The notes below the pieces were generated by a model. That model saw nothing but the letters and a program-made list of their open reading frames with translations. It did no database searches and had not been told where the DNA came from. From an uncultured delta proteobacterium (GTDB lineage: Bacteria > Desulfobacterota > Binatia > UBA9968): a stretch of 64,000 nt of DNA. Shown here piece by piece: positions 13,570-37,207 of the stretch. Location of the stretch: positions 1,760,001 to 1,824,000 of the forward strand of contig CAVUVW010000013.1 in NCBI GenBank assembly GCA_963745035.1, read 5' to 3'. Position 1 is the first letter of the stretch. The number at the start of each line of letters is the position of its first letter. The translations under genes and the position numbers were made by a program.

Positions 13570-13812
13570 CGTGTTGTGATCCGTGATCGTGTGCGTGATT
13601 GCGGATCGAAGAATAGAATTGACGTACGACCCCGAGGTAAACGCTACCGCATACGAACCTTTTAATTTTCTGCGGCTGTGTGCAAATTCTTTACACTCCG
13701 TACCGCAATACCGTGATCGTGAACGGAGAAGTGCCGTGAGCGTGGGGAAAAAGGCCGTGTTCGTGGTTGTGGACGCGCTAGAGCAGTTCTAGCGTGATCG
13801 TGTTCGTGGTTC
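13570..13812. repeat. CGTG-family degenerate hexamer tract downstream of four-helix-bundle gene A1
   Basis: cgtgatcgtgtgcgtg, cgtgagcgtgg, cgtgttcgtggttgtgg, cgtgatcgtgttcgtg. Confidence 0.8.
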
Positions 13813-14163
13813 GCTTCCCAAGGACTGCGACAGCCGCGAAAGCATCTGAACCACCCGGTCATAGTCGGAGCGTAATTCGTGATACGTCTCTGGCGAAATG
13901 TAATTTAGATCGCGGGCGACAAGCGGCTGATAGCAGACTTCGCCCGCGGAGCCGCGCGCGATACCCACAAATTGGCGATACTCCTTGGTACCGAGCCTCA
14001 TAGCGCCTTCCATAAGGTTCATGCCGACTGAGATTGCGGCTCGCCGCATCTGATCGACTAGGCTATACATTTCCTCTCTCGGGAAGCTTTTCGTAACCGA
14101 ATAAATCTTCAGAGCCAGCTGATGAGCGAGTTTGAAAACATCCAAGTCTTCCACACTGTTCAT
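13789..14163 (-). CDS. Four-helix-bundle protein (TIGR02436/23S-IVP-like), subfamily A copy 1
   Basis: EDLDVFKLA...FPREEMYSLVDQMRRAAISV..NL.EG...ARGSAGE. Confidence 0.92.
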   Translation of the reverse strand: MNSVEDLDVFKLAHQLALKIYSVTKSFPREEMYSLVDQMRRAAISVGMNLMEGAMRLGTKEYRQFVGIARGSAGEVCYQPLVARDLNYISPETYHELRSDYDRVVQMLSRLSQSLGSEPRTRSR

Positions 14164-14182
14164 CCCCGTCCCTCCGAGAAGC

Positions 14183-14260
14183 CACGATCACGAACCACGA
14201 CCACGTTCTCCCCCACCGCCCTCCTGACCACGAGCACGTATCACGAACACGTTGGCACGG
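14183..14260. repeat. CACG-family tract upstream of gene A1 (inverted relative to the downstream tract)
   Basis: cacgatcacgaaccacgaccacgtt...cacgagcacgtatcacgaacacgttggcacgg. Confidence 0.85.
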
Positions 14261-14269
14261 CTACTGCGT

Positions 14270-14367
14270 GCCCGTTCAAAACGTTCAAGCCGTTCAATGG
14301 TTTCACTCCGTTCAAGCCGTTACTCGCTAACGGCTGTTCAACGGTTCAATCGTTCAGAAGTTCAACG
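14270..14367. repeat. CGTTCAA-family tandem tract preceding the palindrome
   Basis: about 8 degenerate (C/G)GTTCAA units. Confidence 0.8.
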
Positions 14368-14381
14368 TCAGATTCTCGGAC

Positions 14382-14432
14382 GGGAAACTTCCATGTTTCG
14401 AGAATTCTCGAAACGTCGAAATGTGAAGCCAG
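14382..14432. repeat. Conserved palindromic element, copy 1
   Basis: gggaaacttccatGTTTCGAGAATTCTCGAAACgtcgaaatgtgaagccag. Confidence 0.92.
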
Positions 14433-14499
14433 GCACGAGGTGGGAGGCAGCAGGCGCGAGCCGGGAACAATACTCGGGAAGGAACCTTGAACTGGACCT

Positions 14500-14754
14500 T
14501 TACCTGTACACTTCCCGCCGATGTCTTACACGAAAAATCCTCACACGCCTGCGCGCATCATCGATATCGTAGACGACTCGATAATCTCCGATTCGGATGC
14601 GCCAATCATTTCGCGAGCCGGTTAACTTGTGGCAACCGGGTGGGCGTGGATTTTCGGCGAGGGCGTTTATGCGGGAAACGATACGATTGAAGATAGTGTG
14701 AGGCAGCGCTCGAAGATCGCGTTCAGCGGTCCGCTCAATTAGAATCTCATACAC
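14500..14754 (-). CDS. RelE/ParE-family toxin
   Basis: ENPRPPGCHKLTG...WRIRIGDYRVVYDIDD...VRHRREVY. Confidence 0.92.
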   Translation of the reverse strand: MYEILIERTAERDLRALPHTIFNRIVSRINALAENPRPPGCHKLTGSRNDWRIRIGDYRVVYDIDDARRRVRIFRVRHRREVYR

Positions 14755-14953
14755 CCGCAGTGTCCTTCAGAAAGTCGGCAAACTTGCGGAATTTGAGCGG
14801 CCTTTTCCTCATTTCCTTGAGCGTCTTGAGATCCTCCGCATCCTCCGCGCGCTCGAGCAACTCGCGATACTCCTCAATACCGAGAATGACGGCGGTCGGC
14901 CTTCCTCTACGCATTACGATTTCGGGGTCCCTTCTTTTTCGCTTTGCTTTCAT
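14747..14953 (-). CDS. Phd/YefM-like antitoxin
   Basis: IVMRRGRPTAVILGIEEYRELLE; overlaps the toxin start. Confidence 0.8.
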   Translation of the reverse strand: MKAKRKRRDPEIVMRRGRPTAVILGIEEYRELLERAEDAEDLKTLKEMRKRPLKFRKFADFLKDTAGV

Positions 14954-15195
14954 GGTTTTCACCTTGTCTGTTTGGACGACAATATCATCCCCAAAAAGTC
15001 CCTTCAAATGGACGCCGTGACGCGCGACTCGTGAAGCCGAGACGTGATCGTGGTCTGATACCGTGAATCGTGGTCGTGAGTCGGATAATTGCCGTGAGCG
15101 TACCTTCCAAAGGATAAAGGCAAAAGGATAAGGGATAAATCCCGTGAGCGTGGGGAAAAAGGCCGTGTTCGTGGTTGTGGACGCGCTAGAGCAGT

Positions 15196-15273
15196 CTAGC
15201 GTGATCGTGTTCGTGGTTCGCTTCCCAAGGACTGGGACAGCCGCGAAAGCATCTGAACCACCCGGTCATAGTC
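15196..15273 (-). pseudogene. 3'-end-only fragment of four-helix-bundle subfamily A (same tail as copy A1)
   Basis: Nearly identical to 13789-13866 (DYDRVVQMLSRLSQSLGSEPRTRSR). Confidence 0.85.
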
Positions 15274-15309
15274 AGCGAAAACCGCCGTGAGCGTGATTCG
15301 TGATCGTGT

Positions 15310-15663
15310 CTACCGATTGAGACTCTGCGAGAGCTTGGACAGCATTTGGATGACCCGATCATAGCCCGAGCGCAATTCCTGATACGTTTCGTTAGAGATA
15401 TAATTTAGATCGCGGGCGACAAGCAGCTGATAGCAGACTTCGCCCGCGGAGCCGCGCGCGATACCCACAAATTGGCGATACTCCTTGGTACCGAGTCTCA
15501 TAGCGCCTTCCATAAGGTTCATGCCGACTGAGATTGCCGCTCGCCGCATCTGATCGACTAGGCTATACATTTCCTCTCTCGGGAAGCTTTTCGTAACCGA
15601 ATAAATCTTCAGAGCCAGCTGATGAGCGAGTTTGAAAACATCCAAGTCTTCCACACTGTTCAT
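15310..15663 (-). CDS. Four-helix-bundle protein, subfamily A copy 2
   Basis: Near-identical to A1 over the first ~87 codons, different C-terminal helix; CGTG tract downstream and CACG tract (15683-15760) upstream. Confidence 0.92.
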   Translation of the reverse strand: MNSVEDLDVFKLAHQLALKIYSVTKSFPREEMYSLVDQMRRAAISVGMNLMEGAMRLGTKEYRQFVGIARGSAGEVCYQLLVARDLNYISNETYQELRSGYDRVIQMLSKLSQSLNR

Positions 15664-15887
15664 CCCCGTCCCTCCGAGAAGCCACGATCACGAACCACGA
15701 CCACGTTCTCCCCCACCCCCTCCTGACCACGAGCACGTATCACGAACACGTTGGCACGGCTACTGCGTGCCCGTTCAAATCGTTCAAACGCTGCGCTCAT
15801 CCGAAACCTGAAACCCGTTCCAATTGTTCCAACGGTTCCATCGCTTCGCTACGTTCCAAACGTTTAAATCCCAAAGACTAAGAGAGA

Positions 15888-15940
15888 GGGGAACTTCGAC
15901 GTTTCGAGAATTCTCGAAACGTCGAAATGTTAAGTCAGGC
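15888..15940. repeat. Conserved palindromic element, copy 2 (perfect 32-bp palindrome 15895-15926)
   Basis: TTCGACGTTTCGAGAATTCTCGAAACGTCGAA. Confidence 0.93.
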
Positions 15941-16021
15941 ACGAACAACAGGCGTGAGGTCGGAAAGAAAGATACGTGTTCGTGATTTCCTTGATCGGGT
16001 GTTCAACAAAGATATTCTGTA

Positions 16022-16049
16022 TTGACACTTTAAATTATCATGATAATCT
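16022..16049 (+). promoter_or_regulatory. Sigma70-like promoter overlapped by a 14-bp palindrome
   Basis: TTGACA (16022-27), TAATCT (16044-49); ATTATCATGATAAT at 16034-16047. Confidence 0.5.
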
Positions 16050-16056
16050 AAACCGT

Positions 16057-17205
16057 GTGTTTAAGCGATCCTTATCGTTGCCGAAGGCCGGCATGGAGAG
16101 CTTCTTCCTCTGGGGACCGCGACAGACCGGCAAAACCACCCTGCTCAGGGCCGCCTACCCGGACGCCCTGTGGATCGATCTACTCAAGGCGGAGGAGTAC
16201 CGACGCTATCTGCAGAACCCGGAGCTGCTCCGTGCTGAGATCGCAGCGCAGAAATCCGTGCGCCATGTGGTCATCGACGAGGTCCAGAAGGTCCCGCCGC
16301 TCCTCGACGAAGCCCACTGGCTGCATGAAAACCGCGCCGTCCGCTTCGCTCTCTGCGGCTCGAGCGCGCGCAAGGTGAAACGCGGCCACGCCAATCTGTT
16401 GGGCGGACGGGCGGTGCGCTACGAGCTGCACGGCTTGACCGCTGTCGAGATCGGGCGTGAATTCGATCTGGAGCGCATGTTGAACCACGGCTATCTGCCG
16501 TCGATCTACTTGTCCGATCGTCCACAGCGCCTGCTCAATGCCTATGTGGCGGATTATTTGAAAGAAGAAGTCGCCGCGGAAGGGTTGGTTCGAAACCTTC
16601 CCGTATTCTCGGCCTTTCTCAACGCGGCTTCGCTCTCGGATACCGAGCTGGTCAATTTTTCCACCATCGCGCGCGACTGCGGTGTTTCCAGCGTGACGAT
16701 CCGCGGCTATTTCGAGATTCTCGAAGATACACTGTTGGGACGGTGGCTGCCGGCTTACGTCAAGCGTCCGAAACGGCGGGTCATCGCGGCGCCCAAGTTT
16801 TTCTTCGCCGACGTCGGCGTGGTCAACCACCTTGCCAAACGCGGCGAGCTACGGCCGAGATCGGAGCTCTACGGCAAGGCCTTCGAGAACTGGGTCTTTC
16901 ATGAGTTGACCGCGCATAACGCGTACGCCGAAGCCTTTGCCACGCTCGGTTATTGGCGCCTCGCCAGCGGCATCGAAGTCGATTTTATCGTCAATGACAT
17001 GCAGGTGGCGATCGAGGCCAAAGCCGCCGCCAACATTACTACCGATCATCTCAAAGGCCTCCGTTCCCTGGTGCAGGATCATCCGCGCATCAAGCAACGC
17101 CTGATCGTCTGCCTCGAACCCAAGCGCCGCCGCACCGAGGACGGCATTCTCGTCCTTCCCGCGTTGGAGTTTTCTCAGGTGCTCAAGAGCGGCGAGTTGT
17201 TCTAA
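16057..17205 (+). CDS. AAA+ ATPase (AAA_14) with DUF4143 C-terminal nuclease-like domain
   Basis: WGPRQTGKTT, VVIDEVQK, CGSSARK, PKFFFADVG, YWR...EVDFI...IEAK. Confidence 0.9.
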   Translation: MFKRSLSLPKAGMESFFLWGPRQTGKTTLLRAAYPDALWIDLLKAEEYRRYLQNPELLRAEIAAQKSVRHVVIDEVQKVPPLLDEAHWLHENRAVRFALCGSSARKVKRGHANLLGGRAVRYELHGLTAVEIGREFDLERMLNHGYLPSIYLSDRPQRLLNAYVADYLKEEVAAEGLVRNLPVFSAFLNAASLSDTELVNFSTIARDCGVSSVTIRGYFEILEDTLLGRWLPAYVKRPKRRVIAAPKFFFADVGVVNHLAKRGELRPRSELYGKAFENWVFHELTAHNAYAEAFATLGYWRLASGIEVDFIVNDMQVAIEAKAAANITTDHLKGLRSLVQDHPRIKQRLIVCLEPKRRRTEDGILVLPALEFSQVLKSGELF

Positions 17206-17414
17206 AAAGGATAAGGGATAAAGGCCGTGAGCGTGATTCGTGATCGTGAAAATGCCAGAGACGTGAGCGTGATCGGACAACTAACGCGATCGTGTTCCCA
17301 GCCGGAAAAACGCCGTGATCGTGTCTTGTCCTTCAGTGAGAACGACCGCGCTCGTGCTGGTGGACGTGATTCGTCCCGCTATGTGGAGCGTGATCGAGCT
17401 CAACAGACGCCCGC

Positions 17415-17457
17415 GGGGAAACTTCCACGTTTCGAGAATTCTCGAAACGTCGAAATG
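17415..17457. repeat. Conserved palindromic element, copy 3
   Basis: ACGTTTCGAGAATTCTCGAAACGT at 17427-17450; the ArsR gene stop follows at 17463. Confidence 0.93.
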
Positions 17458-17462
17458 AGGCC

Positions 17463-17763
17463 CTAGCCTAGACGGCTCGTCGAGTTGATGATCTTTTCAA
17501 GTGCCTTCAACAGCCCCCGAGTCTCGCTGCGGTGCTTGAGCCAGTAGCGAACGTTCTTCCCGTCGCTGTCGTATCTCACGATATCGGCGGCGCGCAGCTT
17601 GGCCAGATGTGTGCTGATGGTCTGCACCGAGCGGCCGGCAAGCTTGGCCAGAGCGCTCGGCGTCATCGCGTCCGCCCGCATCGAGCAAAACAACGAGCTG
17701 GTAAATCACCGGATTCCCAAGTAAACGGCAAAGCCGCGATTCGCGATAGTCGGGTTCGTCCAT
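17463..17763 (-). CDS. ArsR-like winged-HTH regulator (one frameshift, possibly a sequencing error)
   Basis: Two overlapping ORFs join to LCRLLGNP...TPSALAKLAGRSVQTISTHLAKLRAADIV. Confidence 0.78.
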
Positions 17764-17800
17764 CGCCAGCCATCTACGGCAAAACCGCCTCCGCTGTCAA

Positions 17801-17845
17801 TTCCACGTTTCGAGAATTCCCGAAACGTCGAAATGTGAAGTCAGG
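17801..17845. repeat. Conserved palindromic element, copy 4
   Basis: ttccacgtttcgagaattcccgaaacgtcgaaatgtgaagtcagg. Confidence 0.9.
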
Positions 17846-18077
17846 TATGAGGCAGGAGGCGGCAGGCAATAGTCAAAAAACTGGACCTCGGCCGTGTGCA
17901 GCTTTTCTTCGACCAGAAAGCCTATCCTCCTCGGTTCCGAGCACAGCGAGAAAGGACGTGTCGTGATCGTGCGGGACCAGCCGTTCGGGAGGGAGGACGA
18001 CGCTAATGGTGATCTGGGAACCTGCGGACAACTATCGCATCGTCGTAGGTAAAAAACGCCGAGTTTAGAAGCCAGCT

Positions 18078-18290
18078 CTATTTGCCGGCGGTTAACTCTG
18101 CTTCAAAAGGCCGCTCCTTGCGAAAACGGCTAACACCGAGAATGCTGAACCCGACTACTTGTCCATGTTCGTCGACTCGCTCCATCAACGCGTCGTGCGC
18201 AGTTTCGCGCATGAACCCCGGGGCATCGCTGAACCGTACCTCCAAAAAATCCCCTTCCGGATCGAACCAAACTTTCAGTTTTTCGGCCAT
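18078..18290 (-). CDS. DUF2283-like putative antitoxin
   Basis: KVWFDPEGDFLEVRFS...VDEHGQVVGFSI. Confidence 0.8.
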   Translation of the reverse strand: MAEKLKVWFDPEGDFLEVRFSDAPGFMRETAHDALMERVDEHGQVVGFSILGVSRFRKERPFEAELTAGK

Positions 18291-18586
18291 AGGATTTCTC
18301 CTGCTTTAACCGTATCCGTGATATATGCTGTAATCACGAAAGCGTCGTCCGGTAGATACTTTACCACTACACACAACCATTTCCCACCGACTTGGGTTTG
18401 CCTGTAAAACTCGTAGAAAAGCTTTACGTCGTCATCGGAGCGCGATCGCCGCACCTCGCTCGGTGTTTGCAATACTCGCTCAAGCTCATCCGCCATTACC
18501 GCCATTTCTACATGTTCCAAGATATGCGCGAGTCGCTCGTCAGTCAGCCGAACAGAAGTGCCAAAGCAATCTCGGATCACTTTCAT
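18275..18586 (-). CDS. DUF4258/RelE-like putative toxin
   Basis: VRLTDERLAHILEH...KWLCVVVKY...FVITAY; paired with DUF2283. Confidence 0.72.
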   Translation of the reverse strand: MKVIRDCFGTSVRLTDERLAHILEHVEMAVMADELERVLQTPSEVRRSRSDDDVKLFYEFYRQTQVGGKWLCVVVKYLPDDAFVITAYITDTVKAGEILWPKN

Positions 18587-18706
18587 AGACGGAAGATACG
18601 GCAGTGTGCCATGCGACGCAATAAAGTCGAGTGTGAAGGCCCATAGTTTTGAACTGGCCCGACGTGGCCGACAGAAGACCCGTAACTATGTCGTCGAAAT
18701 GAGAAA

Positions 18707-18967
18707 CTACTTCCCCAAACCCAGGCGCCGACGCAGTTCCCTGGCCGAGATGGCGCCTTCCTTTTTTACACGGCCTCTGGAAGTCTCTATGATCTTGAGA
18801 AACTTGCGGTTGGTGCTCAGCGCTAGAGTCTCTTCATCCGCGTTCCGTATCGGAATAACGGCCGCGAATGGTTTTCCCGCCTTGTAGACGACGACCGGAG
18901 CTTTTCTTGCTTTTGTGGCGTATTCGGAAAGGGGTCCTGACGCCTTTTTGAACTCTATTTTTGTCAT
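18707..18967 (-). CDS. Phd/YefM-like antitoxin
   Basis: PVVVYKAGKPFAAVIPI. Confidence 0.78.
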   Translation of the reverse strand: MTKIEFKKASGPLSEYATKARKAPVVVYKAGKPFAAVIPIRNADEETLALSTNRKFLKIIETSRGRVKKEGAISARELRRRLGLGK

Positions 18968-19263: not shown

Positions 19264-19628
19264 GCTATTGTCCTTGCGCCTTTTGGTGTCGCGTGATTTC
19301 GTCCGTAAAAACAATCAAGGCGTTGGTCGGATCGGATGACCGCGACAAAGTTCTTCGCAATTTAATGGATTGGACGGGTTTTGGGCAAGTGGGTTTGCAA
19401 AACGTGGGGCCGGAGTCGTGGAGCAACAGGCGTGAGGTGCGAAAGAAAGATGCCTGCGCGTGGTTCGTGATCGTGTCCGAGCCCGGGTCCGTTCAAGGCA
19501 TTCAAAGCGAACCCGGACGGGGCCTCCTTTAGTCGGACAGGGTAGCCCCGTTCCAGCCGTTCAACCGCTTCGCTCCGTTGAAAACGTTGCAGAGCAATGC
19601 GGTTCGAAGGTGCAAGGTAAGACAAGAC

Positions 19629-19647: not shown

Positions 19648-19819
19648 TTAAGGATAAAGGCAGAAGGATAAAGGATGAGGCGATAAAAACCGTGAGCGTG
19701 GCGGAAAAGGCCGTGTTCGTGGATCGTGGGCGCGCTCGGACCAGTTGCTAAGCGGTTCAGTGGCCGACCGTTACTGTTAAAGACAGAGAACTCATACGTC
19801 GGAAAACGGCGTTGATCAG

Positions 19820-20073: not shown

Positions 20074-20255
20074 GGGTCAATCCACCTTTGACGATGCGTC
20101 TATGACTCTCTCCAGCGTTTTGAGAAGCCCTTTCATTTCTCCTTTATGCTTGAGCCAGTCATTTTTAAGGCTAAAGGCGAAAGGATAAAGGATAAGCGGC
20201 TCTAAAAATGATAATGCCAAAAGTATAAAAGGATAAACACGACCTGCCGCCCGAA

Positions 20256-20621: not shown

Positions 20622-20780
20622 AAAAGGATAAGGCCCTCATCCTTTATCCTTTCGCCCTTATCCTTTTCAAATGCTGATACACGATCGGATTGCCGAGCAA
20701 GCGACAGAGCCGCGACTCCCGATAGCGCTTCTCGTCCATGGCCGGCGATCTAATCCCCACCCCATTCCCCTGTCAAGACG

Positions 20781-23290: not shown

Positions 23291-23435
23291 TTGGACTCAC
23301 TCCATTTGACAAGTCCGGTGAAACGTCAGCGGATCTTATGGGATGGCCGGGTTTGGGACAAGAGGGACGCGAGGGCAGAAGAGACGTGGTCGTGGGGTTT
23401 ACTTAAGGATAAAGGCAAAGGGATAAAGGATAAGT

Positions 23436-23801
23436 TTAACATTTCGAAATTCTTGACTTGGCTTTGGTGTTTACGACGATGCTAACGAATATACCTTCAG
23501 TTCACCGGTTTCTTTTTTAACGGCGGCCAATCTTTCTTCTGGAACAAATCCGGAATCGCCGAGCAATTCCAACCAGTATTCGCTCTCTTCTAATTCCTGC
23601 AATGAGCCTTCGATCTTGCTGATAAAATCGGCGTTGGACTTGGCTCGTGACGCTTCGCGATACTGCGCGCCGACCGAGGTGCCGGATCGTAAGAGCTGTC
23701 GTCCCATGATCTGCGCCTCTGTTCTCTTTCGGCAATTCGGCAAAAAGCCGGATGACCGAAAGTGCATAATCCTTCGTCCTGATTTTCAAGGCGCTATTCA
23801 T
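23436..23801 (-). pseudogene. Four-helix-bundle protein, subfamily B copy 2 (compensating frameshifts, possibly errors)
   Basis: MNSALKIRTKDYALSVIRL + QLLRSGTSVGAQYREA...; AAGGATA tract 23405-23434, TATCCTT tracts 23816-23902. Confidence 0.85.
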
Positions 23802-24015
23802 TATCGCCGTTTGAGCATCCCTTATCCTTTATAATTTCTCCTTTAAAATGGTTCGCCATCGCCGTCGGGGCTTATCCTTTATCCTTCAGCCTTTATCCTT
23901 TCAACTTGTGCCGTGTTCGTGTTCGTGTCGGATAGCTACCGTGAACGTGATTCGAGTCGATGGCGGCTCTGGCAAAACAGCCGTTCAAAACGTCCGAGGA
24001 GTAAAACCAGGACAA

Positions 24016-25085: not shown

Positions 25086-25226
25086 AGATCTTACTCCCAC
25101 ATGACTGAGTCTACTGGATTCGGCGGGTTTCGGGCAAGAGCGTTCTTAAAGGATAAGGGCAAACGGATAAAGGATAAACCGAGAGAAGGGAAAGGGGACC
25201 GGAAAAAATAAGCTCTGAGACCAATC

Positions 25227-25368
25227 TCAAAGTTTAGTTTTCGCAATCCTTGATTTCGCCTTCGTGTTCCTGACGATGGCGACGAAGATTCCTTTTAGTT
25301 CACCGGTTTCTTTTTTAATCGTGCTCAATTTTTCTTGTGGAACGAATCCGGAATCGCCGAGCAGTTCG
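25227..25368 (-). pseudogene. 3'-end-only fragment of four-helix-bundle subfamily B
   Basis: Nearly identical to 27185-27322; AAGGATA tract downstream (25148-25200). Confidence 0.85.
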
Positions 25369-25413
25369 TAGACCGGCTTAACGGGTTCAAGAGTTCAAAG
25401 GCGGATTCTCGGA

Positions 25414-25916: not shown

Positions 25917-26131
25917 AAAAGCAATCTCCTATCGGCACTAATTTTACGCGAAACAGCAGGGCGATGCCAATCGTCGGAGGGAGAATGTTACAAACGAAAA
26001 GCGGTTCCAAGGGTTCCACTCGTTTCCAGACGTTCCAATCGTTCCGGAGCAACGCACTTCAAGAGTTCAAGGTCGAGAATTGCCCGGTCATAACGCAAGA
26101 AAACAGCCGTGATCGTGATTCGTGATCGTGT

Positions 26132-26168
26132 CTACCGGTTAAGAGTCTGCGACAGCCTGGAGAGCATC
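26132..26168 (-). pseudogene. Very short 3' remnant of four-helix-bundle subfamily A
   Basis: MLSRLSQTLNR* with an adjacent CGTG tract 26108-26130. Confidence 0.7.
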
Positions 26169-26354
26169 TTTCAAAGGATAAAGGCAAACGGATAAAGGAT
26201 GAGGGATAAAAACCGTGAGCGTGGGGGGAAAGGCCGTGTTCGTGGATCGTGGGCGCGCTGGAGCAGTCTAAGCGGTTCGTGGCCGACCGTTACTGTTAAA
26301 GACAGAGAACTCATGCGCGGAAAACGGCGTTGATCAGTGCCAGCCCTTCCCGTC

Positions 26355-26904: not shown

Positions 26905-27388
26905 GGTTTTCACCTTGTCTGTTTGGACGACAATATCATCCCCAAAAAGTCCCTTCAAATGGACGCCGTGACGCGCGACTCGAGACGTTTACTTAAGGAT
27001 AAAGGCAAAGGGATAAAGGATAAAAACAAAAAGACGTGAGCGTGGGGAAAGGCCGTGTTCGTGATCGAGGATGTGCTAGAGGAGCAAGCGATGATAGAGC
27101 GCGAAAAGGATAAAGGACTACGACAACCTGAGAGCAAGGGCAAAGGGACCAAGGGCAAAGGGATAAAGGCTCTGAGAGCCAATCTCAAAGTTTAGTTTTC
27201 GCAATCCTTGATTTCGCCTTCGGTGTTCCTGACGATGGCGACGAAGATTCCTTTTAGTTCACCGGTTTCTTTTTTAATCGTGCTCAATTTTTCTTGTGGA
27301 ACGAATCCGGAATCGCCGAGCAATTCCAACCAGTACTCGCTCTCTTCTAATTCCTGCAATGAGCCTTCGATCTTGCTGATGAAATCGG

Positions 27389-29429
27389 GTAGAGTAGAGA
27401 ACAGGCGCAGCATTATTTAGGTTGACCCTTGGCCGTATCCGTCGTTTCCAACTTCGTGCCCGTTTAGGATCTCCGTGAAACACAGTCCTGTTCCCCCTCA
27501 TCAAACCGTACTTGCAGTTCTCCCGCATACGGCTTTCCGATCATCTTCACTTCAAGGCATTGCGAGTTGACCGATATCGGGCATGTACTGTGGGATCGTG
27601 ACCATTCCAAACTCTTTATAGAGCCGGGACGCTGGCCACTGGCTCGATCGAAACCCTTTGATCTGTCGTCGCCCCCGCAGGTACTTGAGCATTCGCCGCT
27701 CCAGAAAATATCGCTGCCGGGTAAACACCGCGTGCTGTTATGCAGGTGGAAGTAATTTACCCACCCCGCGACATACCGATTGACCCGATCCATCACCTCT
27801 TGTTGGGGAAGGCAATGGGTCCAGCGCGCCGTCAGCGCTCGCACTTCGTCTCGAAAGCGCCGCTCGGACTTTTGCGCGATGGTTGCGTCAACGTGATCAT
27901 CCGACTGCTCTTGTAGACTGATTCTGCGAGTAAAAGCTAAATCCCAGAAAATCAAAGCTCCCATACGAGCATCGACCATCCGAGTCTTGTTCGTCGTTCA
28001 ACTTTAGCTCCATTCGCTCGATTATCTGCCTGCACTTTCTTGCACCGTCGCTTCGATTCTGCCGCGCATCAGGATGACAAAGTCATCGGCATATCGCACC
28101 AGCTGCGCTGTCGAGCCCGTGCTACGACAATACGATCGGAACATCCGGTCAAATAGATGCAGGTAAATATTGGCAAGTAGACGGGGAGATCACTCCGCCT
28201 TGAGGCGTGCCCCGCTCGGGTCGGTTTGACTGCGCCGCTTCCCTTCCTCGTCTTCTTCCACCACTGCCGCACTGAGCCACTGCTTGATCCAATGCAAAAT
28301 GTGCCGGTCGTTGATTCGTGTGGCAATCAGCTTCATGAACTTATCGTGGGCAATGCGTGTCGAAGTACTGCTGAAGGTCAGCGTCTAACACATACGGATG
28401 ACGCACGGTAGAGCGCCTACCCGGATAGCACCGACAGCTTGATGAGCGTCTCTTCTTCGGACGAAATCCAAAACTGCAATCCTCGAAGTCCGCCTCAAAG
28501 ATCGGCTCAATGACGATCTTCACCGCCATCTGTGCTACTCGGTCTCCGAATGGTCGGTATCCCAACGGCCTCTTTCTTCCATCGGCCTTCGGGAATAAAG
28601 ACCCGGCGTACGGCTTGCGCTCGGTAGGTCTTTTCTTTTAGTTCCTGTTGAAGCGTCAATAGAAACTTCGCTTCGCCTTCGCCAGTCTCGATAGACTGAA
28701 AAGTTACCCCGTCGATCCCGGGGCTCCGCCATTGGCTCGAACCAAGCGATAGGCGTGCTGCGATAATATCCTCACGCCATACTTTGTCCGGCAATAGATA
28801 AAAGCGAAACTTGGGCTCTCTCTTGACCTTGAGATACAGTTTGCGCTGGAGGTCTCGAATCTTCTCAGGTGTTTGTAGCCTCACGGCAATCACCTTCTCC
28901 TTTCCTCGTTAACAAACTTAATGAAAGCAGGGCGCCTTCCCTCCATCCGGCATTGCCCGATTTCTTAGGTACTACTCGCCCCTCCGACTTCTCGCTTGCC
29001 TGAACTCGGTTTTCGTTTGCCCTTATACCGAGTCCATCGCAGCCATCACCCGCGACAAACGAGATCTCCTGCGTTACCCAGCAACAGCTTCTCTCACATC
29101 CCGTCCCGACGACCCCGGAGAGTTCATCTGATGCTTCTTCGGTTAGCTTCACAGATGACTGCGGCCTTCCCCATCTGACAACAGGGTCGGCACTCTCGAT
29201 TTGCAAGTGACGAGGCTCTGTATGGGTTCCTGATTAGTACGGTCTGTGAGTTTGCGATTCTCCGCTGCTGTTCTCTGATCATTTGCCTCCTTTCTCTTTG
29301 ATTCGGAGTTTTCTCGATCCGCTTAGTCTCAAGAGTCGCCTCTCAAAACCGGTTCTTCGCTAACGGGGTGAACCGTTAATTCCCCGCACCGGACTTTAAC
29401 CGGTTAGCTGCTCTGCTTCCGCGGCGCAC
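27389..29429 (-). mobile_element. Group II intron
   Basis: 5' GTGCG; domain V AAGCCGTATGCGGGAGAACTGCAAGTACGGTTTG (~27502-27535); 3' ...CTCTACTCTAC; internal RT ORF. Confidence 0.92.
27547..28893 (-). pseudogene. ltrA: Group II intron reverse transcriptase/maturase (many frameshifts; no HNH domain seen)
   Basis: [62 protein letters not shown]. Confidence 0.88.
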
Positions 29430-29597
29430 GTCAGACTTGCCCCGCGATGCCTCGCGATACTGCGCGCCGACCGAGGTGCCGGATCGCAAGAGCTGACGCC
29501 CCATAACCTGCGCTTCTGTTCTTTTCGGTAATTCGGCAAAGAGCCGGATGACCGAAAGTGCATACTCTTTGGTTCTGACTCTTCAGATCGCGATTCA

Positions 29598-29703
29598 TAA
29601 AGGATAGGGCAAAGGGATAAAGGATAAGTTTACCGCAAATCAGCGCGTCACAAGGCTAAGCGTGAGCGGATTTTATCCTTTATCCTTCATCCCTTATCCT
29701 TTC
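29598..29703. repeat. Inverted pair of AAGGATA/TATCCTT tracts upstream of the split B gene
   Basis: aaaggatagggcaaagggataaaggataag...ttttatcctttatccttcatcccttatccttt. Confidence 0.8.
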
Positions 29704-30737: not shown

Positions 30738-30749
30738 ACCTTTCTCCCC

Positions 30750-31850
30750 TCAGGACAACCAAGGATTGAGTGAAACGTGAATGGCATTTTCGCCGGCGAC
30801 TTCCTGGCCGATCAGCCTGAGCGCATAGTCGGCGTCCTTGAGCGGCACCTCGTGGGTGGTGAGCTGCGCCGCCGCCTCGGGCCGGGCCGCGATGATACTC
30901 AGCGCCCGGCGGATGTCGTCGGACTCGTGGCCCCTGACGCCGATCATCGCGATGCCCCGGCTCGCGATCTTGTCCATCTCGAACTCGACGGTCTGATTGG
31001 GCGTCCGGCCGGCCAGCACCACCGTGCCGCCGCGCCGGACCAGATCGACCGTCGCCTCCTGCGCCTTGATGCTGCCGGTGACATCGACGACCACGTCCGC
31101 CAGCTCGGAACCGAGGATGCTTTTGACCTGTTCGACCAGCGGCGCTCTGTCGGAATAGACCACGTGGGTCGCGCCGAGCTCCTGGGCAACGGCTAACCTC
31201 GCCGCGTCGGTTTCCAGTCCGGCGACCACGATCGGCGCCGCGCCGGCGATGGCGGCGGAGAGGACACAGCCGAGGCCCTGCTGGCCTGGGCCGAGAATCA
31301 CGATGGAGTCGCCGGGGCTCAGCGCCGGCACCCGCTGGGCCCATTTGACGCCGTTGGAAACTGCGGTGTAGAGCACCGCCGCTGTCGGCGCCACCCCGGC
31401 GGGCACGGGGTGAAGAATCGAGTTGGGGTGGAGATACATGTACTGCGCGTAGCCGCCCCAGAGGTGCGGCGGATCGGCCATGCTCGCACTGATGCCGTAG
31501 CTCCGCTTGTTGGCGCAGAGCGTGGCGTTGCCGGTGACGCAATAGCGGCAGCGCTGGCAGGTCACCGGCGCTTCGACCGCCACCAGATCGCCCTCCTTGA
31601 GCTTCCACTCAGCGCTCGCTGCTTTGCCGATGGCGGCGATGCGGCCGACCACTTCGTGCCCCATGATGTGCGGCGGGTTCAAATAGGGCCAGTGATCGAG
31701 CTCCTTATAATAATGATAGTCGCTGCCGCAGATGCCGCAGGCTTCCACTTTCAGCACCGCATCGTCCGCGCCCGGATTGGGCACGGCGAACTCGCGCATC
31801 TCGAAGCGGCGCTTGTCGACGATCACGGCGGCCTGGGATTTCTTATCCAT
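30750..31850 (-). CDS. Zinc-dependent alcohol dehydrogenase (MDR family)
   Basis: CGICGSD, GHE, CxxCxxC...C, GPGQQG. Confidence 0.92.
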   Translation of the reverse strand: MDKKSQAAVIVDKRRFEMREFAVPNPGADDAVLKVEACGICGSDYHYYKELDHWPYLNPPHIMGHEVVGRIAAIGKAASAEWKLKEGDLVAVEAPVTCQRCRYCVTGNATLCANKRSYGISASMADPPHLWGGYAQYMYLHPNSILHPVPAGVAPTAAVLYTAVSNGVKWAQRVPALSPGDSIVILGPGQQGLGCVLSAAIAGAAPIVVAGLETDAARLAVAQELGATHVVYSDRAPLVEQVKSILGSELADVVVDVTGSIKAQEATVDLVRRGGTVVLAGRTPNQTVEFEMDKIASRGIAMIGVRGHESDDIRRALSIIAARPEAAAQLTTHEVPLKDADYALRLIGQEVAGENAIHVSLNPWLS

Positions 31851-31894
31851 CGGCGGGCTCCTCGCGGTGCGTGTAGTGTTCAATGCGACCGGTT

Positions 31895-32996
31895 TCAGTC
31901 GCGCCAGGGGTTGATCGCGACGTGGATCGCCTCCTCGCCCGGGATCTCCTGGCCGATCAGCCTGAGGGCGAGATCGGCTTCCTTGAGCGACACCTCGTGG
32001 GTGAGCAGCTTCGACAGTTGATTCCGGCGCGCGGCGATCACGGCCAGCGATTTTCTCACATCTTCCGACTCGTGGGCGCGCACGCCGATCATCTTGATGC
32101 CGCGGCTGGCGAGCTTGTCCATGACGAAGGGAATTTTCTTTTTGGGCGTGCGCCCGCCGAGCACCACCGTGCCGCCGCGCCGGACCAGATCGACCGCGGC
32201 CGCCTGGGCGGCCGTGCTGCCGGTGACATCGACGACCACGTCGGCCATCTCCGGACCGAGGATTTTCTTGACCTGATCGGCCAGCGGCTCGCGGTCGGAA
32301 AAGATCGTGTGCGTCGCGCCCAGCGCCGTGGCCACTTCCAAACGCTTGGCGTCGCGCTCCAGGCCGGCGACGATAATGGGATTGGCTCCGGTCATGGAAC
32401 TCGCCAGCACGCAACCCAACCCCTGCTGGCCCGGCCCCAGGATGACGATGGCATCGCCCAGACTGAGCGCGGGAATGCGCTGGGCCCACTTGACGCCGTT
32501 GGCGATCGGACTGAACAGCACCGCTTCGTGTTCGGAGATTCCGGCGGGCACGACGTGCAGGATCGCGTCGGGATGGAGATACATGTACTGGGAGTAGCCG
32601 CCCCACAAATACGGCGGCTCCTTCATGCTGGCGCTCATGCCGTAGCTGCGCTTGGTCGAGCAGAGCGAAGAGTTGCCGGTGGTGCAGTAGCGGCAGCGGT
32701 GGCAGGTGATCGCCGACTCGACGATGACCAGATCACCCTCCTTCACGTTCCAATGCCTGGCGGCTTGCGGCGCTGATGTCGTTGATGCGCCCGACCACCT
32801 CGTGGCCGAGGATCTGCGGCGGCGACTGGTACGGCCAGTGGTGCCCCTCGGTATAATAGTGATAGTCGCTGCCGCAAATGCCGCACAGCTCGACCTTCAG
32901 GATCGCGTCCGCCTCGGCCGGCTTGGGCACGGCGAAATGGCGCATCTCGATCTTGCGTCTGTCGGTCACGACCGCGGTCAGGGATTGCTCTGCCAT
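31895..32996 (-). CDS. Zinc-dependent alcohol dehydrogenase, tandem paralogue (one frameshift near 32750)
   Basis: Same motifs split over two frames. Confidence 0.85.
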
Positions 32997-33280
32997 GAAG
33001 TGCTCCGTTCAACGTGAGTGGGGCTTTAAAGAATAGCGGTTCGGCAAGGTGCGAAGATTACCGAGCGACTCGGCCCGGCTTCATCCATATCGCGGCGCGC
33101 CCAAGCGATGCAAGGATGCCTGCCCTGCTGCGACGGCTCGCAGAGAGCGGTGTTGCCGCTAATGAGACCAACTCTCCTCAACGTCTCTGAAGCGAAACCC
33201 GTTCAAATCGTTCAAGCCGTTCAAGCGTAGACTTGTTCAACGGTTCAATTGTTCAAAAGTTCAACGTCAGATTCTCGGAG

Positions 33281-33332
33281 GGGGAACTTCCACGTTTCGA
33301 GAATTCTCGAAACGTCGAAATGTGAAGTCAGG
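33281..33332. repeat. Palindromic element, copy 11 (consensus), with CGTTCAA tract 33199-33267 and AGGCA tract after
   Basis: ggggaacttccacgtttcgagaattctcgaaacgtcgaaatgtgaagtcagg. Confidence 0.94.
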
Positions 33333-33380
33333 TATGAGGCATTAGCCAATAGGCAACAGTAAAACGCGGAGCGGTCAAAA

Positions 33381-33701
33381 TTATTCTACGCGCAACAATT
33401 GGCCCGGCCTGGCCTTGGGAATCGTGGCGAGCAAATTTGGAACTAGTGGAAGAATATCTTCGAGAGCATTGCTCGGCGCGATAAGCAGGATGATGCCGAG
33501 CCGAGACTGGGAGAGGTTTTGCTGAAATTGGAGGTTGCGATCCGCGGTCACCAGAACTTCAAAGCCTGCGTCAGCAGCCACACGAAGCAGCTCGCCATTC
33601 TTGAATCCAGCCCATCCGCGCTGCTGGACGGTGCTTACGTTGTGACCGCCGATTTCTCCGGCAAGATGACGCGGCAATTGCTCATCGAGTAGCACGCGCA
33701 T
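33381..33701 (-). CDS. DUF5615 PIN-like toxin
   Basis: MRVLLDEQLP...GWAG.KNGELL...LVTADRNL.FQQN. Confidence 0.88.
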   Translation of the reverse strand: MRVLLDEQLPRHLAGEIGGHNVSTVQQRGWAGFKNGELLRVAADAGFEVLVTADRNLQFQQNLSQSRLGIILLIAPSNALEDILPLVPNLLATIPKARPGQLLRVE

Positions 33702-33909
33702 CGGCCGTCAAAACCTCGTGAGCGTTCTCAAGAACCCTAATCGCTTGTTCCTTCGACACCGATGGAAACGCGTCGAGAAACTCATCGATGTCATGGCCAC
33801 GCTCGAGATAGTCGAAAAGGTTACGCAGCGGTACTCGCGTACCGATGAAAACGGGAGTTCCACCCAATATCTCCGGGTCGCTATGCACGACCGAAGGACG
33901 GTTGGTCAT
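33682..33909 (-). CDS. DUF433 antitoxin
   Basis: DPEILGGTPVFIGTRVP. Confidence 0.9.
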   Translation of the reverse strand: MTNRPSVVHSDPEILGGTPVFIGTRVPLRNLFDYLERGHDIDEFLDAFPSVSKEQAIRVLENAHEVLTADARATR

Positions 33910-34104
33910 GAACACCTCCTCTCCAAAAATACGTCCCTGCCGGTGCGTTTAATATATCCTAGGCTGAATGGCCGTCCAAATGGGGGAAAGGGGCCGTAGT
34001 CATTTCGGAAACTGCCGTGAGAGCGTAATCGTGGTCCGACAAAGAACGTGATCGTGGTCGGGAAAATGCCGTGTTCGTGTTCGAGCAACTACCGTGATCG
34101 TGGG

Positions 34105-34457
34105 TTACTTCCTAGCGAACTGGGAGAGACGAGAAAGCATTTGAATGACGCGATCGTAGCCGCTCCTTAATTCTTGATAGGTTTCGTTAGAGGTGTAGTT
34201 TAGATCACGAGCCAGAAGGAGCTGGTAGCAGACCTCCCCTGCCGATCCGCGGGCTATGCCGACGAACTGGCGGTATTCCTTTGTGCCGAGCCTCATGGCG
34301 CCCTCCATCAGGTTCATACCCACAGACCGGCAGCTCGTCTGGTTTGATCCCCCAAACTGAACAATTCTTCTTTTGGAAATGCTTTGGTGGCCGCGTATGT
34401 TTTCAACGCTAATTGGTGGGCGAGTTTAAATACGTCGAGATCCTCTACGTTGTTCAT
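34105..34457 (-). pseudogene. Four-helix-bundle subfamily A copy (one frameshift)
   Basis: MNNVEDLDVFKLAHQ + GMNLMEGAMRLGTKEY; CGTG tract 34016-34102, CACG tract 34476-34553. Confidence 0.85.
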
Positions 34458-34719
34458 CCTGTCCCTCCGAGAAGCGACGATCACGAAACATGACCACGTT
34501 CTCCTCATGCCCTCCTCGAGGACGAGCACGTATCACGAACACGTTTCTCACGGCTACTCCCCCGTCTCTGGCGGGATCGGCGTCCGACAAACAACGTGAT
34601 CGGTTCGTGATCCGTGGTCGTGATCGTATGCGGAAAAGAACCCGTGGACGGCGTTATCGATATTGAGCGGGCTCTTGAACCGACGGGGTTGCGACCGCCG
34701 GCGCCCATCATGGCGCTCG

Positions 34720-35415
34720 TCAAGGTTGCGTGAAAGCGGTCGGTCCGATGAACGACTCGGCGCTGGAGCGCGTATCGTCCGAATCGATCGCAAGCGAGAG
34801 AGCGCTAGGTTTGTCCGGCGCCTCGCCATAGATCTTACGGAAGTCTTCGACGACATTGCGGCGCTCGGTGATCCATTTGCCGAGTTCGCCGGAGCCCGAG
34901 CGCAGGACGACATAAGTCACCGTGGAGGTCTTCTCGCTCTTGCAGATCGTGCCAGCCGGTGCCGTCGAATCCCAAACGTAGCCGATGATGCGCGAGCGCA
35001 CCGCCTCCGGGGCGCGCAGCCAGGCGACGTAAACCTGAGCGGCCTGGTCGTCGGTCGACTTCTGGCAGGCATTGCCGCCGGTGGGAAGCGTGACGACCTT
35101 CCATCTCCACTCGAGGATTGGCGTCTCTTTGAGATCGACCGAAGCTTTGAGGTCGCGACTGATTGTAGAAGTCTCACCCTTGCTCCTCAGGTGCAGGACC
35201 GGCTGACCGTTGTCCGACGCGATCTCAAGGTCGTAGGCGGGCTTTCCCCAGGTCTGCTCCTTCCAGTCGCCCGGGATGGTCCGCGTACCGAGCGGATACG
35301 AGCGCCAGTCCTCGACGACGACGCGATCGGCCGCCCAGGCGGTGGCAAGCACGGCGCAGGCGACGGCTAAAGCGGCTCGGCGCGCACGAGTCGAATTCAT
35401 GGCTTTGTGGCTCAT
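34720..35415 (-). CDS. DUF3047 domain exported protein
   Basis: TPILEWRWKV, DDQAAQVYV, YVWDS, WITERRNV.EDF, DSDDT. Confidence 0.85.
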   Translation of the reverse strand: MSHKAMNSTRARRAALAVACAVLATAWAADRVVVEDWRSYPLGTRTIPGDWKEQTWGKPAYDLEIASDNGQPVLHLRSKGETSTISRDLKASVDLKETPILEWRWKVVTLPTGGNACQKSTDDQAAQVYVAWLRAPEAVRSRIIGYVWDSTAPAGTICKSEKTSTVTYVVLRSGSGELGKWITERRNVVEDFRKIYGEAPDKPSALSLAIDSDDTRSSAESFIGPTAFTQP

Positions 35416-35627
35416 CGTTCTGTCCGCTGCCCCAGACACCCAGCATTTCCTGGAGGCAAGGACGGGTCAAGGCCAGAAAAGAAAATTTCTACGTCAAGTC
35501 TTTACTGTCCAGCCTACTGCACCGGGAACGACACTTTTATAGGGCTGATTCACGCCAAACCGTGATCGTGCTCGTGATGCGTGGTCGTCGACACTCTAAA
35601 GGCAAGAGGCAGAAGGATAGGGATAGA

Positions 35628-35867
35628 CTACAACTTCGGATTTTTCGATTTAGCTTTGGTGTTTCGGACGATACTGACGAATATTCCTTTCAGTTCGCCG
35701 GTCTCCTTTCTGACGGCGGCCAATTTCTCTTCCGGAAAAAATCCAGATTCGCCGAGCAATTCCAACCAGTATTCGGTCTCCTCTAATTCCTGCAAGGAGC
35801 CTTCCATCTTGCTGATGAAATCGGCGTTAGATTTGGCTCGTGACGCCTCACGATACTGCGCGCCGAC
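35628..35867 (-). pseudogene. 5'-truncated four-helix-bundle subfamily B fragment
   Basis: VGAQYREASRAKSNADFISKMEGSLQELEETEYW...NPKL*; AAGG tract 35598-35626. Confidence 0.85.
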
Positions 35868-35922
35868 AGAAGTTGTTTAACCATTGTCTTTAATCTCGTT
35901 GAATCCATCATTCGGGCGATTC

Positions 35923-36483
35923 TCACGCTTTTCCGTTCTTGGGGATGAACTTCAGCGCGACGCCATTGTTGCACCAGCGTTTTCCGGTTGGCTGAGGCCC
36001 GTCATCGAAAATGTGGCCATGGTGGCCGGCGCAACGGGCGCAGTGATACTCGGTGCGCGGCAGGACGAGCTTGAAATCCGTGCTGGTGCCGAATACTCCC
36101 GGAATGGTCGTGAAAAAGCTCGGCCAACCTGTGCCGCTCTCGTATTTCATAGCAGAAGTAAACAGCGGCAAATCACAACCGGCGCATGCGAATACACCGG
36201 GGCGCTTCTCGTTGTTTAGCGGGCTGGAGCCGGGGCGTTCGGTCCCCTCTTCGCGCAGGATGTTGAACTGCGCGGCGCCTAAACGCTTGCGCCATTCCTC
36301 CTTCGATAGCTTTAGAGGCTCGTTGGGCAGTGGCACTTTGATGCCGTCGGCCAGCAGCGCCTTCCAGTTCTTCTGCATGTTTTCGACTTCCTTCATCGAG
36401 GGCTGCGCGGCGAAGCCGATACCTCTGAAAACATTCCACATACCTGCAGCAAGCAAACCTTGTAATATTTGCCGGCGTGTCAT
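35923..36483 (-). CDS. msrB: Peptide-methionine (R)-S-oxide reductase with Tat-like leader
   Basis: GTERP, KYESGTGWPSF, GHIFDDGP.PTGKRWCNNG. Confidence 0.95.
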   Translation of the reverse strand: MTRRQILQGLLAAGMWNVFRGIGFAAQPSMKEVENMQKNWKALLADGIKVPLPNEPLKLSKEEWRKRLGAAQFNILREEGTERPGSSPLNNEKRPGVFACAGCDLPLFTSAMKYESGTGWPSFFTTIPGVFGTSTDFKLVLPRTEYHCARCAGHHGHIFDDGPQPTGKRWCNNGVALKFIPKNGKA

Positions 36484-36705
36484 AAGCGGCCGCCTTTCAT
36501 ACAGTCCTTGGACCGGTCCGACGTGCTTTTACGTCGCAATCATATCGCTAAAAGATTTGTAGGCAAATAGTATCGATAACGGCAGACGTTGCAGAGCAAC
36601 GCGGTTCAAAGTTCAATTTTCAATTAATACCGAAGTCGGTTCCAAAGGTTCCAACCGTTTCAAACGTTCCAAACGTCAACCGGGTTCAAAGTTCAACGTC
36701 GCACT

Positions 36706-36730
36706 GGGAACTTCCACGTTTCGAGAATTC
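36706..36730. repeat. Left half of the palindromic element (ends at the centre GAATTC)
   Basis: gggaacttccacgtttcgagaattc|cccttaag; GTTC(C/A)A tract 36603-36697. Confidence 0.85.
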
Positions 36731-36777
36731 CCCTTAAGGGAATAAGACGTGAGCGTGATCGTGATTCGTGACCGTGT

Positions 36778-37165
36778 CTACCGGTTAAGAGTCTGCGATA
36801 GGCGGGAGAGCATCTGAACCACCCGATCGTAACCTGCGCGGAGGTCCCGATAGAGGTCTTCGCTGATATACTGAAGATCCTTGGCCAGCAGCAGTTGATA
36901 AGAGACTTCACCGGCAGAACCTTTCGCGTAGAACTACCGCGGCCAGTTCAAACACGTTCAACCGCTGCGCTCAGTTCCAATCGTTTCAGACTCGCATCGT
37001 TGCTAACTCTGAAATTTGGCAGAATGAAGATAGAAGCCGCCGCTCGTCGCATCTGATCGACCAGGCTATAGACTTCTTCCCGGGGACATTGTTGGTAACC
37101 GAATGAATCTTCAGAGCCAGCTCGTGCGCCAATTTGAAGACATCGAGGTCTTCCACGCTCTTCAT
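36778..37165 (-). pseudogene. Four-helix-bundle subfamily A gene with its middle replaced by a CGTTCAA-type segment
   Basis: 5' MKSVEDLDVFKLAHE...QMRRAAAS; 3' AKGSAGEVSYQLLLAKDL...SQTLNR*; insert ~36929-37028. Confidence 0.8.
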
Positions 37166-37207
37166 CGTCTTGCCACGAAAACACGAACACGAGCACGGTT
37201 CTTTCTT

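Follow-up and report, generated by a model that had tools for sequence, protein, structure and literature searches.

Genes of the PF05635/TIGR02436 family are typically enclosed, in genomes of many phyla, by two inverted arrays of a short repeated word. We describe this arm-gene-arm design starting from a 64,000-nucleotide stretch (hereafter the window, with positions counted from its first letter) of contig CAVUVW010000013.1 in assembly GCA_963745035.1, which derives from an uncultured delta proteobacterium of the lineage Desulfobacterota, Binatia. The region between 13.5 and 37.2 kb of the window holds 11-12 whole or partial members of the family, all on the minus strand and belonging to two subfamilies called A and B, which agrees with the roughly 11 genes in 24 kb counted in the initial annotation. 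The explanation we favor, with a probability of about 0.6, is that these units are cassettes resembling the intervening sequences of ribosomal RNA (rRNA) but located outside rRNA, that they are inherited and lost as units, and that they have been collected together with their wrecks in a variable toxin-antitoxin island.

The PF05635/TIGR02436 family was first seen within rRNA intervening sequences. It is very large and, to our knowledge, has no known function. A cassette as we define it consists of a PF05635 four-helix-bundle gene between two inverted arrays, each with about four copies of a word at a spacing of 6-9 nt. In the transcript, the arms would form a paired stem enclosing the open reading frame (ORF), and RNase III may then cut the ORF RNA out of the host transcript, by analogy with ORF-bearing 23S rRNA intervening sequences. 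Because the words are conserved and the spacers are free, something would be expected to read the word, and the encoded, probably pentameric protein would be the most economical candidate. Excision as RNA and word binding by the protein are the two steps that we infer. The wreckage in the window would have been left by duplication, recombination and the insertion of a group II intron.

Inverted word arrays around PF05635 genes

A search of the genome with the TIGR02436 profile gave 18 matches, each above 24 bits, and ten of these lie in the window between 13.8 and 36.9 kb. The ten matches represent eight gene copies, A3 and B3 being matched twice, and the count rises to 11-12 with a B-like piece (25245-25394) and with A fragments recognized at the DNA level (15130-15273 and 26083-26281). 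Only A1, A2 and B1 are intact, with PF05635 scores of 120.8, 125.8 and 68.7 bits against a cut-off of 33.8 (E values between 1e-36 and 4e-35 for A1 and A2, and 6e-19 for B1; the eight proteins scored range from 1e-36 to 2e-13). B2, A3 and A4 are frameshifted, B3 is interrupted by the group II intron, and B4 and the fragments are 3′ pieces. The fragment at 15130-15273 is 96% identical to 13722-13866, which comprises the 3′ end of A1 and its arm words, and segmental duplication evidently produced part of the pseudogenes and fragments of the window. To speak of a gene expansion, as had been done at first, therefore overstates what is present, namely three intact genes among pseudogenes and fragments.

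Two sequence relatives in the Protein Data Bank, 2gsc (the nearest solved relative of A2, E 5e-19) and 2rld, have five chains each, in what we take to be pentameric assemblies. The bAvd profile PF22296 gave 20.1 and 26.8 bits, which is under its 40-bit cut-off. Five-chain solved relatives, these weak bAvd matches and a related four-helix-bundle fold family are shared with Avd of diversity-generating retroelements. In contrast to such retroelements, there is neither a retroelement-type reverse transcriptase nor a pair of template and variable repeats, and the sole reverse transcriptase here belongs to the group II intron.

Read in the sense of the gene, A copies carry CGTG words upstream, in two 5′ tracts, and at least one CACG tract downstream; B copies carry AAGGA(TA) upstream and (TA)TCCTT downstream. 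On the plus strand, A1, A2, A3 and A4 consequently have CGTG arrays toward lower coordinates (downstream) and CACG arrays upstream, with AAGGA-type arrays downstream and TCCTT-type arrays upstream of B1, B2 and B3, and these are the sides to which the tracts had originally been assigned. The exact hexamers and heptamers of that description did not survive, however. Each repeat unit combines a fixed word with two or three free letters, namely CGTG plus NN or NNN in subfamily A and AAGGA plus TA in subfamily B, and the second 5′ tract of the A copies had been overlooked. The proposal that each subfamily has a bracket of its own holds for the A and B words but not for the layout of the region, where both word types are intermixed and most arrays are unpaired. 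Between positions 13500 and 37200 there are 30 left-type arrays versus 9 right-type arrays, which leaves about 21 solo 3′ arms. The solo arms sit behind gene fragments and unrelated genes, and all are oriented as 3′ arms of minus-strand genes.

Among 86 clear brackets from the genomes examined, the unit period is 7 nt in 60, 8 nt in 22, 9 nt in 3 and 6 nt in 1 (the A gene), and the median arm has 4.3 units and measures 31 nt. The units of an array differ preferentially in certain columns (911, compared to 794.5 ± 17.8 for shuffled units, with 0 of 500 shuffles reaching 911). Conservation is thus confined to the word and leaves the spacer free, a pattern that indicates selection on the word. 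The 3′ arm begins at or inside the stop codon, so that some C-terminal tails are translated arm.

Over all brackets, the 5′ arms are rich in G and poor in C (G 33%, A 32%, T 23%, C 13%) and the 3′ arms show the opposite bias. Four-nucleotide matches resembling Shine-Dalgarno sequences occur 4.7 times per 100 nt in 5′ arms versus 0.1 times in 3′ arms. As a separate observation, the 5′ word of subfamily B, AAGGA, is itself Shine-Dalgarno-like and its partner is anti-Shine-Dalgarno-like (20633-20665, 23817-23900 and 29600-29701). B3 and one copy in a related genome (G029) also have a complete small AAGGA/TCCTT hairpin right before the start codon, which would permit alternative pairings.

The design extends well beyond the window. 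All eight TIGR02436 copies elsewhere in the genome have an inverted array of their own word (AGGCAAT, GTTCAAANN, AGTGAGNT, AATGGAT, TTTCGAT, GAGGGTC and others), and 21 of 28 loci in relatives are bracketed (19 of 26 without the unpublished genome G005). For a comparison across phyla we started from one of these proteins, which has 569 relatives, and took the best 80, of which 79 were scorable. A bracket score of at least 14 was reached by 65 of the 79 loci and by 1 of 293 control positions obtained by a shift inside those loci, the threshold of 14 having been set after the control maximum was seen. This sample stems from one query protein and is biased to one clade; two further samples widened it, and brackets are present at 25 of 28 A-like loci and at 103 of 126 loci in the pooled set. 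Two multi-copy genomes of other phyla have a different word at almost every copy, and a single genome can carry at least ten different words. We conclude that the arm-gene-arm design is typical of the PF05635 family across phyla.

We found no published description of word-array brackets around PF05635 genes outside rRNA in a search that covered neither subscription journals nor supplements, and the nearest published match that we found is the set of heptamers in one rRNA intervening sequence. Dispersed tandem heptamers have been reported, without explanation, from Geobacter metallireducens (PMC2700814) and from marine Beggiatoaceae (TAACTGA; PMC4679880). As presented in the accessible parts of these papers, they likewise comprise 4-5 tandem 7-nt units at many intergenic sites, and some are drawn as paired inverted sites. 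Those same parts contain no mention of four-helix proteins, S23 or intervening sequences, and do not make the tie to a gene family.

Words, protein clades and the fate of cassettes

If each word belongs with a protein lineage, then arms should be shared mainly between similar proteins. Among 97 brackets, arms are shared in 14 of 19 pairs with at least 70% protein identity, in 19% of pairs at 55-70%, in 4.6% at 45-55% and in about 1% at lower identity, and the correlation between arm and protein similarity (Mantel r 0.36) was reached in 0 of 999 permutations. The word CGTG is retained in A-like proteins at 88, 70, 66, 58 and 56% identity as the period drifts from 6 to 7, AGTG takes its place at 49-52% identity, and other words occur at lower identity. 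Similarly, AAGGA/TCCTT is retained in four of five B-like copies of the genus (54-82% identity), and across phyla AGGC accompanies 25 of 65 relatives of the protein from the C2 cassette at 45% identity or more versus 1 of 37 more distant ones. The word evidently follows the protein clade, as the initial annotation had anticipated for a comparison across genomes. Simple co-inheritance of the gene and its flanks would also give this co-variation.

The arms and the gene also behave as one unit, another prediction that was borne out, since they are present together or missing together at each of two orthologous sites. The C2 cassette is found at its site in five relatives, whereas the site is a bare spacer of 25-30 nt lacking a hairpin in four; one relative carries a copy shortened by an internal deletion, and two have an apparent arm remnant. 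At the site of the C14 cassette, four genomes carry the full unit, two carry the arms with an intervening loop of about 100 nt, and one carries a 78-nt hairpin; arms are absent in two genomes, an unrelated insert of about 440 nt is present in two, and inserts of 1.4-4.8 kb are present in ten. From these states it follows that arms and gene are gained or lost together and, at the C14 site, that gene-less hairpins can arise in place through gene loss. These states show the unit decaying in situ, first to a gene-less hairpin and finally to nothing.

The closest precedent is the 23S rRNA intervening sequence of Coxiella burnetii, which, in the accessible text of PMC4990558, contains an S23p ORF and a 28-bp terminal stem that is cleaved by RNase III. 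Just upstream of the S23p ATG are three tandem heptamers whose copy number varies among strains, with RNase III cleaving where the first heptamer begins, inside the stem formed by the terminal inverted repeats. The same text regards the element as selfish with unknown mobility and cites cases from Leptospira and Salmonella. This arrangement substantiates the link to rRNA intervening sequences that the initial annotation had drawn: a PF05635 protein and an ORF enclosed by terminal inverted repeats are common to both, the stem being a prediction for the cassettes described here. There are also differences. The units in the window lie between protein genes, and an Rfam search at gathering thresholds over 12-41 kb returned only parts of the group II intron and no rRNA. 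The arms of the cassettes are arrays of clade-specific words, with a period of 6 nt in subfamily A.

Competing explanations for the arrays

That the two tracts can pair in the transcript and loop out the ORF, as originally suggested, is predicted by minimum-free-energy folding for all nine intact cassettes of the genome, each with 17-53 long-range pairs between the 5′ and 3′ sides. Several observations weigh against an RNA-based cassette nonetheless. First, the folding z-scores are weak (-1.8 for A1, -1.0 for A2 and +1.0 for the C21 cassette, from 30 mononucleotide shuffles), and a test for selection on an RNA stem found no excess of G-U pairs over A-C mismatches in the sense strand (95 versus 112). 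Second, arms were defined by best local alignment, a procedure that favors complementarity. Third, the spacer letters of the two arms are non-complementary in the TGGAGT family of arrays (30 of 100), which would make its stems a series of 6-bp helices broken by 2×2 loops and thus a poor substrate for RNase III. Fourth, the cassettes encode neither a recombinase nor a nuclease.

Finally, contigs from RNA libraries include pieces of A2 and its 5′ arms only, and demonstrate neither transcription nor end positions. Two contigs of run X19 span 15510-15699 with 0-1 differences and one contig of run X18 spans 15718-15883, the shares of the stretch in RNA runs are 0.06-0.11, and the whole stretch is in no public run. 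Joints recorded at 14356>15817 (X1, side 21), 15031>15110 (X20) and 15138>15298 (X18) may come from relatives or repeats.

Any explanation must also account for arrays that lack a gene. The genome contains about 120 gene-less inverted array pairs with loops of at most 120 nt, in families defined by TGGAGT (37), GTTCAA (30), AT-rich words (12), GAGGAT (9), AAGGAT (5), AGGCA (5) and others, and at least seven further CGTG hairpins were detected by word density. Their G-rich arm nearly always comes first, and TGGAGT cores are 8 nt apart in 142 of 164 cases. Nor is the design restricted to PF05635. All three loci of the GxxExxY family (TIGR04256), whose nuclease-like fold is unrelated, are bracketed by CGCAAAG-type 8-mers, with one word for all three, and gene-less hairpins of the CGCAAAG type exist as well. 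Both DUF559 endonuclease-like genes (C13:569568-569882 and C14:422048-422362) are flanked by an inverted CCCTCTCCC...GGGAGAGGG-type palindrome and not by tandem words. The initial annotation had held that its idea would fail if words were independent of protein clade or if tracts were equally common around unrelated genes. The former is not what we see, and the latter is seen in part, in the gene-less pairs, the GxxExxY loci and the solo arms.

These populations suggest another possibility, a strong form of the initial annotation's proposal that we consider unlikely but worth serious attention: the oligomer of each clade binds its cognate word array, and the gene-bearing cassette serves as a master copy that maintains or spreads the gene-less hairpins, in the manner of the repetitive extragenic palindromic (REP) doublets called REPINs and the REP-associated tyrosine transposases (RAYTs), although with no transposase. 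Conserved words with free spacers and the clade specificity of the words would fit, as would arms of about 4.3 units next to five-chain solved relatives. Furthermore, for almost every hairpin family of the genome, a member with a gene is known either from here or from elsewhere in the genus. Such members exist in this genome for the CGTG, AAGGA, AGGCA, GTTCAA, AGTGAG and ATTTTCG types, in relatives for the GAGGAT type, and in genus genomes and one metagenome contig for the TGGAGT type. No TGGAGT-bracketed gene was found in this genome, whose assembly is 92.6% complete. Among 80 metagenome loci with four TGGAGT words, two have a PF05635-like ORF and one of these is a full arm-gene-arm unit, whose protein has 79-97% identical genes in 7 of 30 genus genomes (6 of 29 without G005). 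Four of those seven genes carry stops, and TGGAGT arms are present in all six that were inspected.

Genomes with the matching gene also tend to have more arrays. The median for TGGAGT is 16.1 per Mb in gene-bearing genomes versus 5.3 in the others (one-sided p 0.008, or 0.019 without G005), and the median number of CGTG arrays is 18 with an A gene versus 3 without (p 0.012), comparisons in which the p values overstate the significance because the genomes are kin and in which the gene's own arms inflate the counts. There are strong exceptions as well, since this genome (G000), in which no such gene was found, has 143 TGGAGT matches, and since G034 and G039 have 40 and 30 CGTG arrays and an A gene was found in neither. 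We regard the relation between gene presence and array number as a lead rather than a result. Moreover, gene loss in place yields gene-less hairpins with no need for spreading, an unrelated nuclease-fold family uses the same design, and an array that serves only for binding has no obvious need of an inverted partner.

REP and REPIN elements are dispersed gene-less palindromic repeats, and the same repeats flank a single-copy RAYT gene that encodes a Y1 transposase. Shared with them are the dispersed gene-less palindromic copies of the flanking repeat and a repeat number that tends to be higher where the gene is present. In contrast, the flanked genes here belong to PF05635 or TIGR04256 and encode no Y1 transposase, the four-helix bundle lacks a known catalytic site, the arms consist of words in tandem, and at least some of the gene-less copies result from gene loss in place.

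A bolder version, which we offer tentatively and consider doubtful, is that PF05635 proteins would read their own 4-6-nt words sequence-specifically, with about one word for each subunit of a five-subunit ring, and that cassettes would be the masters of transposase-free hairpin populations. If true, this would explain both the orphan family of intervening-sequence proteins and the excess of 7-8-nt tandem repeats that has long been noted in bacterial genomes, and the window would present two cognate systems side by side, A with CGTG and B with AAGGA.

It is improbable that the hairpins are instead host elements, such as terminator-like or REP-like intergenic repeats, into whose loops small selfish genes have landed. 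The abundance of gene-less hairpins would be natural in that case, as would the finding that adjacent arrays are inverted-complementary in 119 of 228 pairs versus 83 of 5000 random pairs, and two different gene families do reside within such brackets. The hairpins also overlap frames of at least 150 codons less often than random intervals do (64 of 120 versus 1753 of 2000), a weak proxy for intergenic location given that 88% of random intervals fall in some frame of this length. However, orthologous sites that lack the cassette are also free of a hairpin, in four genomes at the C2 site and in two at the C14 site. Words track the protein clade over genomes and phyla rather than the host, ten or more words coexist in one genome, and decay from cassette to hairpin is seen in place.

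More improbable still is an integron-type cassette array, specifically a cluster of attC sites lacking an integrase (CALIN), with a palindrome or the arms serving as attC sites. The region does have short genes that are nearly all on one strand, many toxin-antitoxin pairs and repeated intergenic modules, and the genome has an integron integrase (TIGR02249, 445 bits), but the only full IntI match is on a different contig, C6. A 32-nt palindrome found in the window is perfect, has only eight copies in the genome and lacks consistent R′′/R′ boxes (no attC model was applied), and the arms are word arrays rather than attC-like imperfect palindromes. On C6, a four-helix-bundle cassette with GTTCAAA arms (36228-36551) is located 6 kb from the integrase match (42134-43036) on the same strand. 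Lastly, chance low-complexity sequence or an assembly artefact, for which only the mosaic, repeat-rich nature of the region speaks, is refuted by the shifted-position and random-pair controls and by reversed patterns, which gave 0 matches in 31 genomes, and the same design recurs in independent assemblies of many phyla.

The window and the reach of the rule

The cassettes and their remains (Table 1) are embedded among ParE/Phd pairs and genes for DUF4258, MqsA-like, DUF433/DUF5615, Zeta toxin, ORF6N, RadC, DNA methylase and DUF4143 ATPase proteins, a gene content that marks the region as a toxin-antitoxin island. A 5.8-kb query from the island found scattered modules in 12 of 30 other genus genomes and a contiguous match longer than 1.2 kb in none. 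The island looks genome-specific in this comparison, in which many assemblies are fragmented.

Several other repeats and duplications were observed. Two tandem zinc-type alcohol dehydrogenase genes on the minus strand (30750-32996) share about 75% DNA identity over 1 kb. The perfect 32-nt palindrome has an EcoRI-like center and is found behind short genes, with cores at 14398, 15904, 17432, 19831, 22720 and 33297; it usually precedes arrays of the TTGAAC word, and seven of the eight genomic copies of its 14-nt core are on the window's contig. Elsewhere in the genome, GTTCAAA-type hairpins recur about every 1.1 kb at C24:46658-52235, as if punctuating a tandem gene array, and CGTG/CACG hairpins are nested in a larger palindrome of about 190 nt whose outer arms are conserved and which is present at least four times (C2:177100, C12:41531, C13:1718829 and C14:26258).

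Table 1. Cassettes, cassette remains and arrays in the window (arm words given in gene sense unless marked)
Feature	Position	Strand
A1 3′ arm zone, CACG words, first tract overlaps last codons	13711..13808	-
A1 gene, intact, 124 aa, PF05635	13789..14163	-
A1 5′ arms, two CGTG tracts (14183-14205, 14229-14259), G-rich spacer between	14183..14259	-
A1-like 3′ fragment with arm words	15130..15273	-
A2 3′ arm, CACG words, begins 1 nt past stop codon	15286..15308	-
A2 gene, intact, 117 aa, PF05635	15310..15663	-
A2 5′ arms, two CGTG tracts	15683..15758	-
B1 3′ arm, TATCCTT-type words	20167..20192	-
B1 gene, intact, 121 aa, PF05635	20256..20621	-
B1 5′ arm, AAGGATA-type words, Shine-Dalgarno-like	20633..20665	-
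B2 3′ arm	23405..23430	-
B2 gene, frameshifted	23436..23801	-
B2 5′ arm	23875..23900	-
B 3′ fragment (25230-25394) and its 3′ arm (25147-25178)	25147..25394	-
Two A 3′ fragments, CGTG (plus strand) arrays 26108-26130 and 26235-26251	26083..26281	-
B3 3′ arm, degenerate	27137..27170	-
B3 C-terminal half	27192..27388	-
Group II intron within B3: RF00029 27389-27537, RF02005 29103-29397, GIIM domain, decayed reverse transcriptase/maturase frames	27389..29397	-
B3 N-terminal half, frameshifted	29430..29598	-
Complete AAGGA/TCCTT hairpin immediately upstream of B3 start	29600..29701	-
A3 3′ arm zone	34024..34103	-
A3 gene, one frameshift	34105..34529	-
A3 5′ arm	34527..34552	-
B4 3′ arm, degenerate	35590..35627	-
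B4 C-terminal fragment	35628..35880	-
A4 3′ arm	36748..36776	-
A4 gene, several frameshifts	36778..37165	-
A4 5′ arm	37174..37197	-
Solo AAGGA and CGTG arrays directly behind plus-strand DUF4143 ATPase gene	17207..17248	
Further unpaired left-type arrays	13582, 15062-15135, 17957, 19459, 19650-19728, 23912, 26995, 34606, 35561	
Gene-less AAGGATA/TATCCTT hairpin, 44-nt loop	39240..39345	
Gene-less GTTCAA/TTGAAC hairpin	40462..40618	

Taken as a rule, a gene between inverted word arrays, with a clade-specific word and gene-less relics, would have consequences beyond this island. For annotation, it would mean that many short 'hypothetical' frames are translated arms only. Naturally matched partners, each a small protein with its short nucleic-acid word, would become available as candidate orthogonal binding parts. 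Dispersed heptamer repeats are an old loose end of bacterial genomics, and the rule would tie them to an orphan protein family and give both a testable function. Finally, rRNA intervening sequences, so far a curiosity of a few pathogens, would become part of a general class of cassettes inside ordinary operons.

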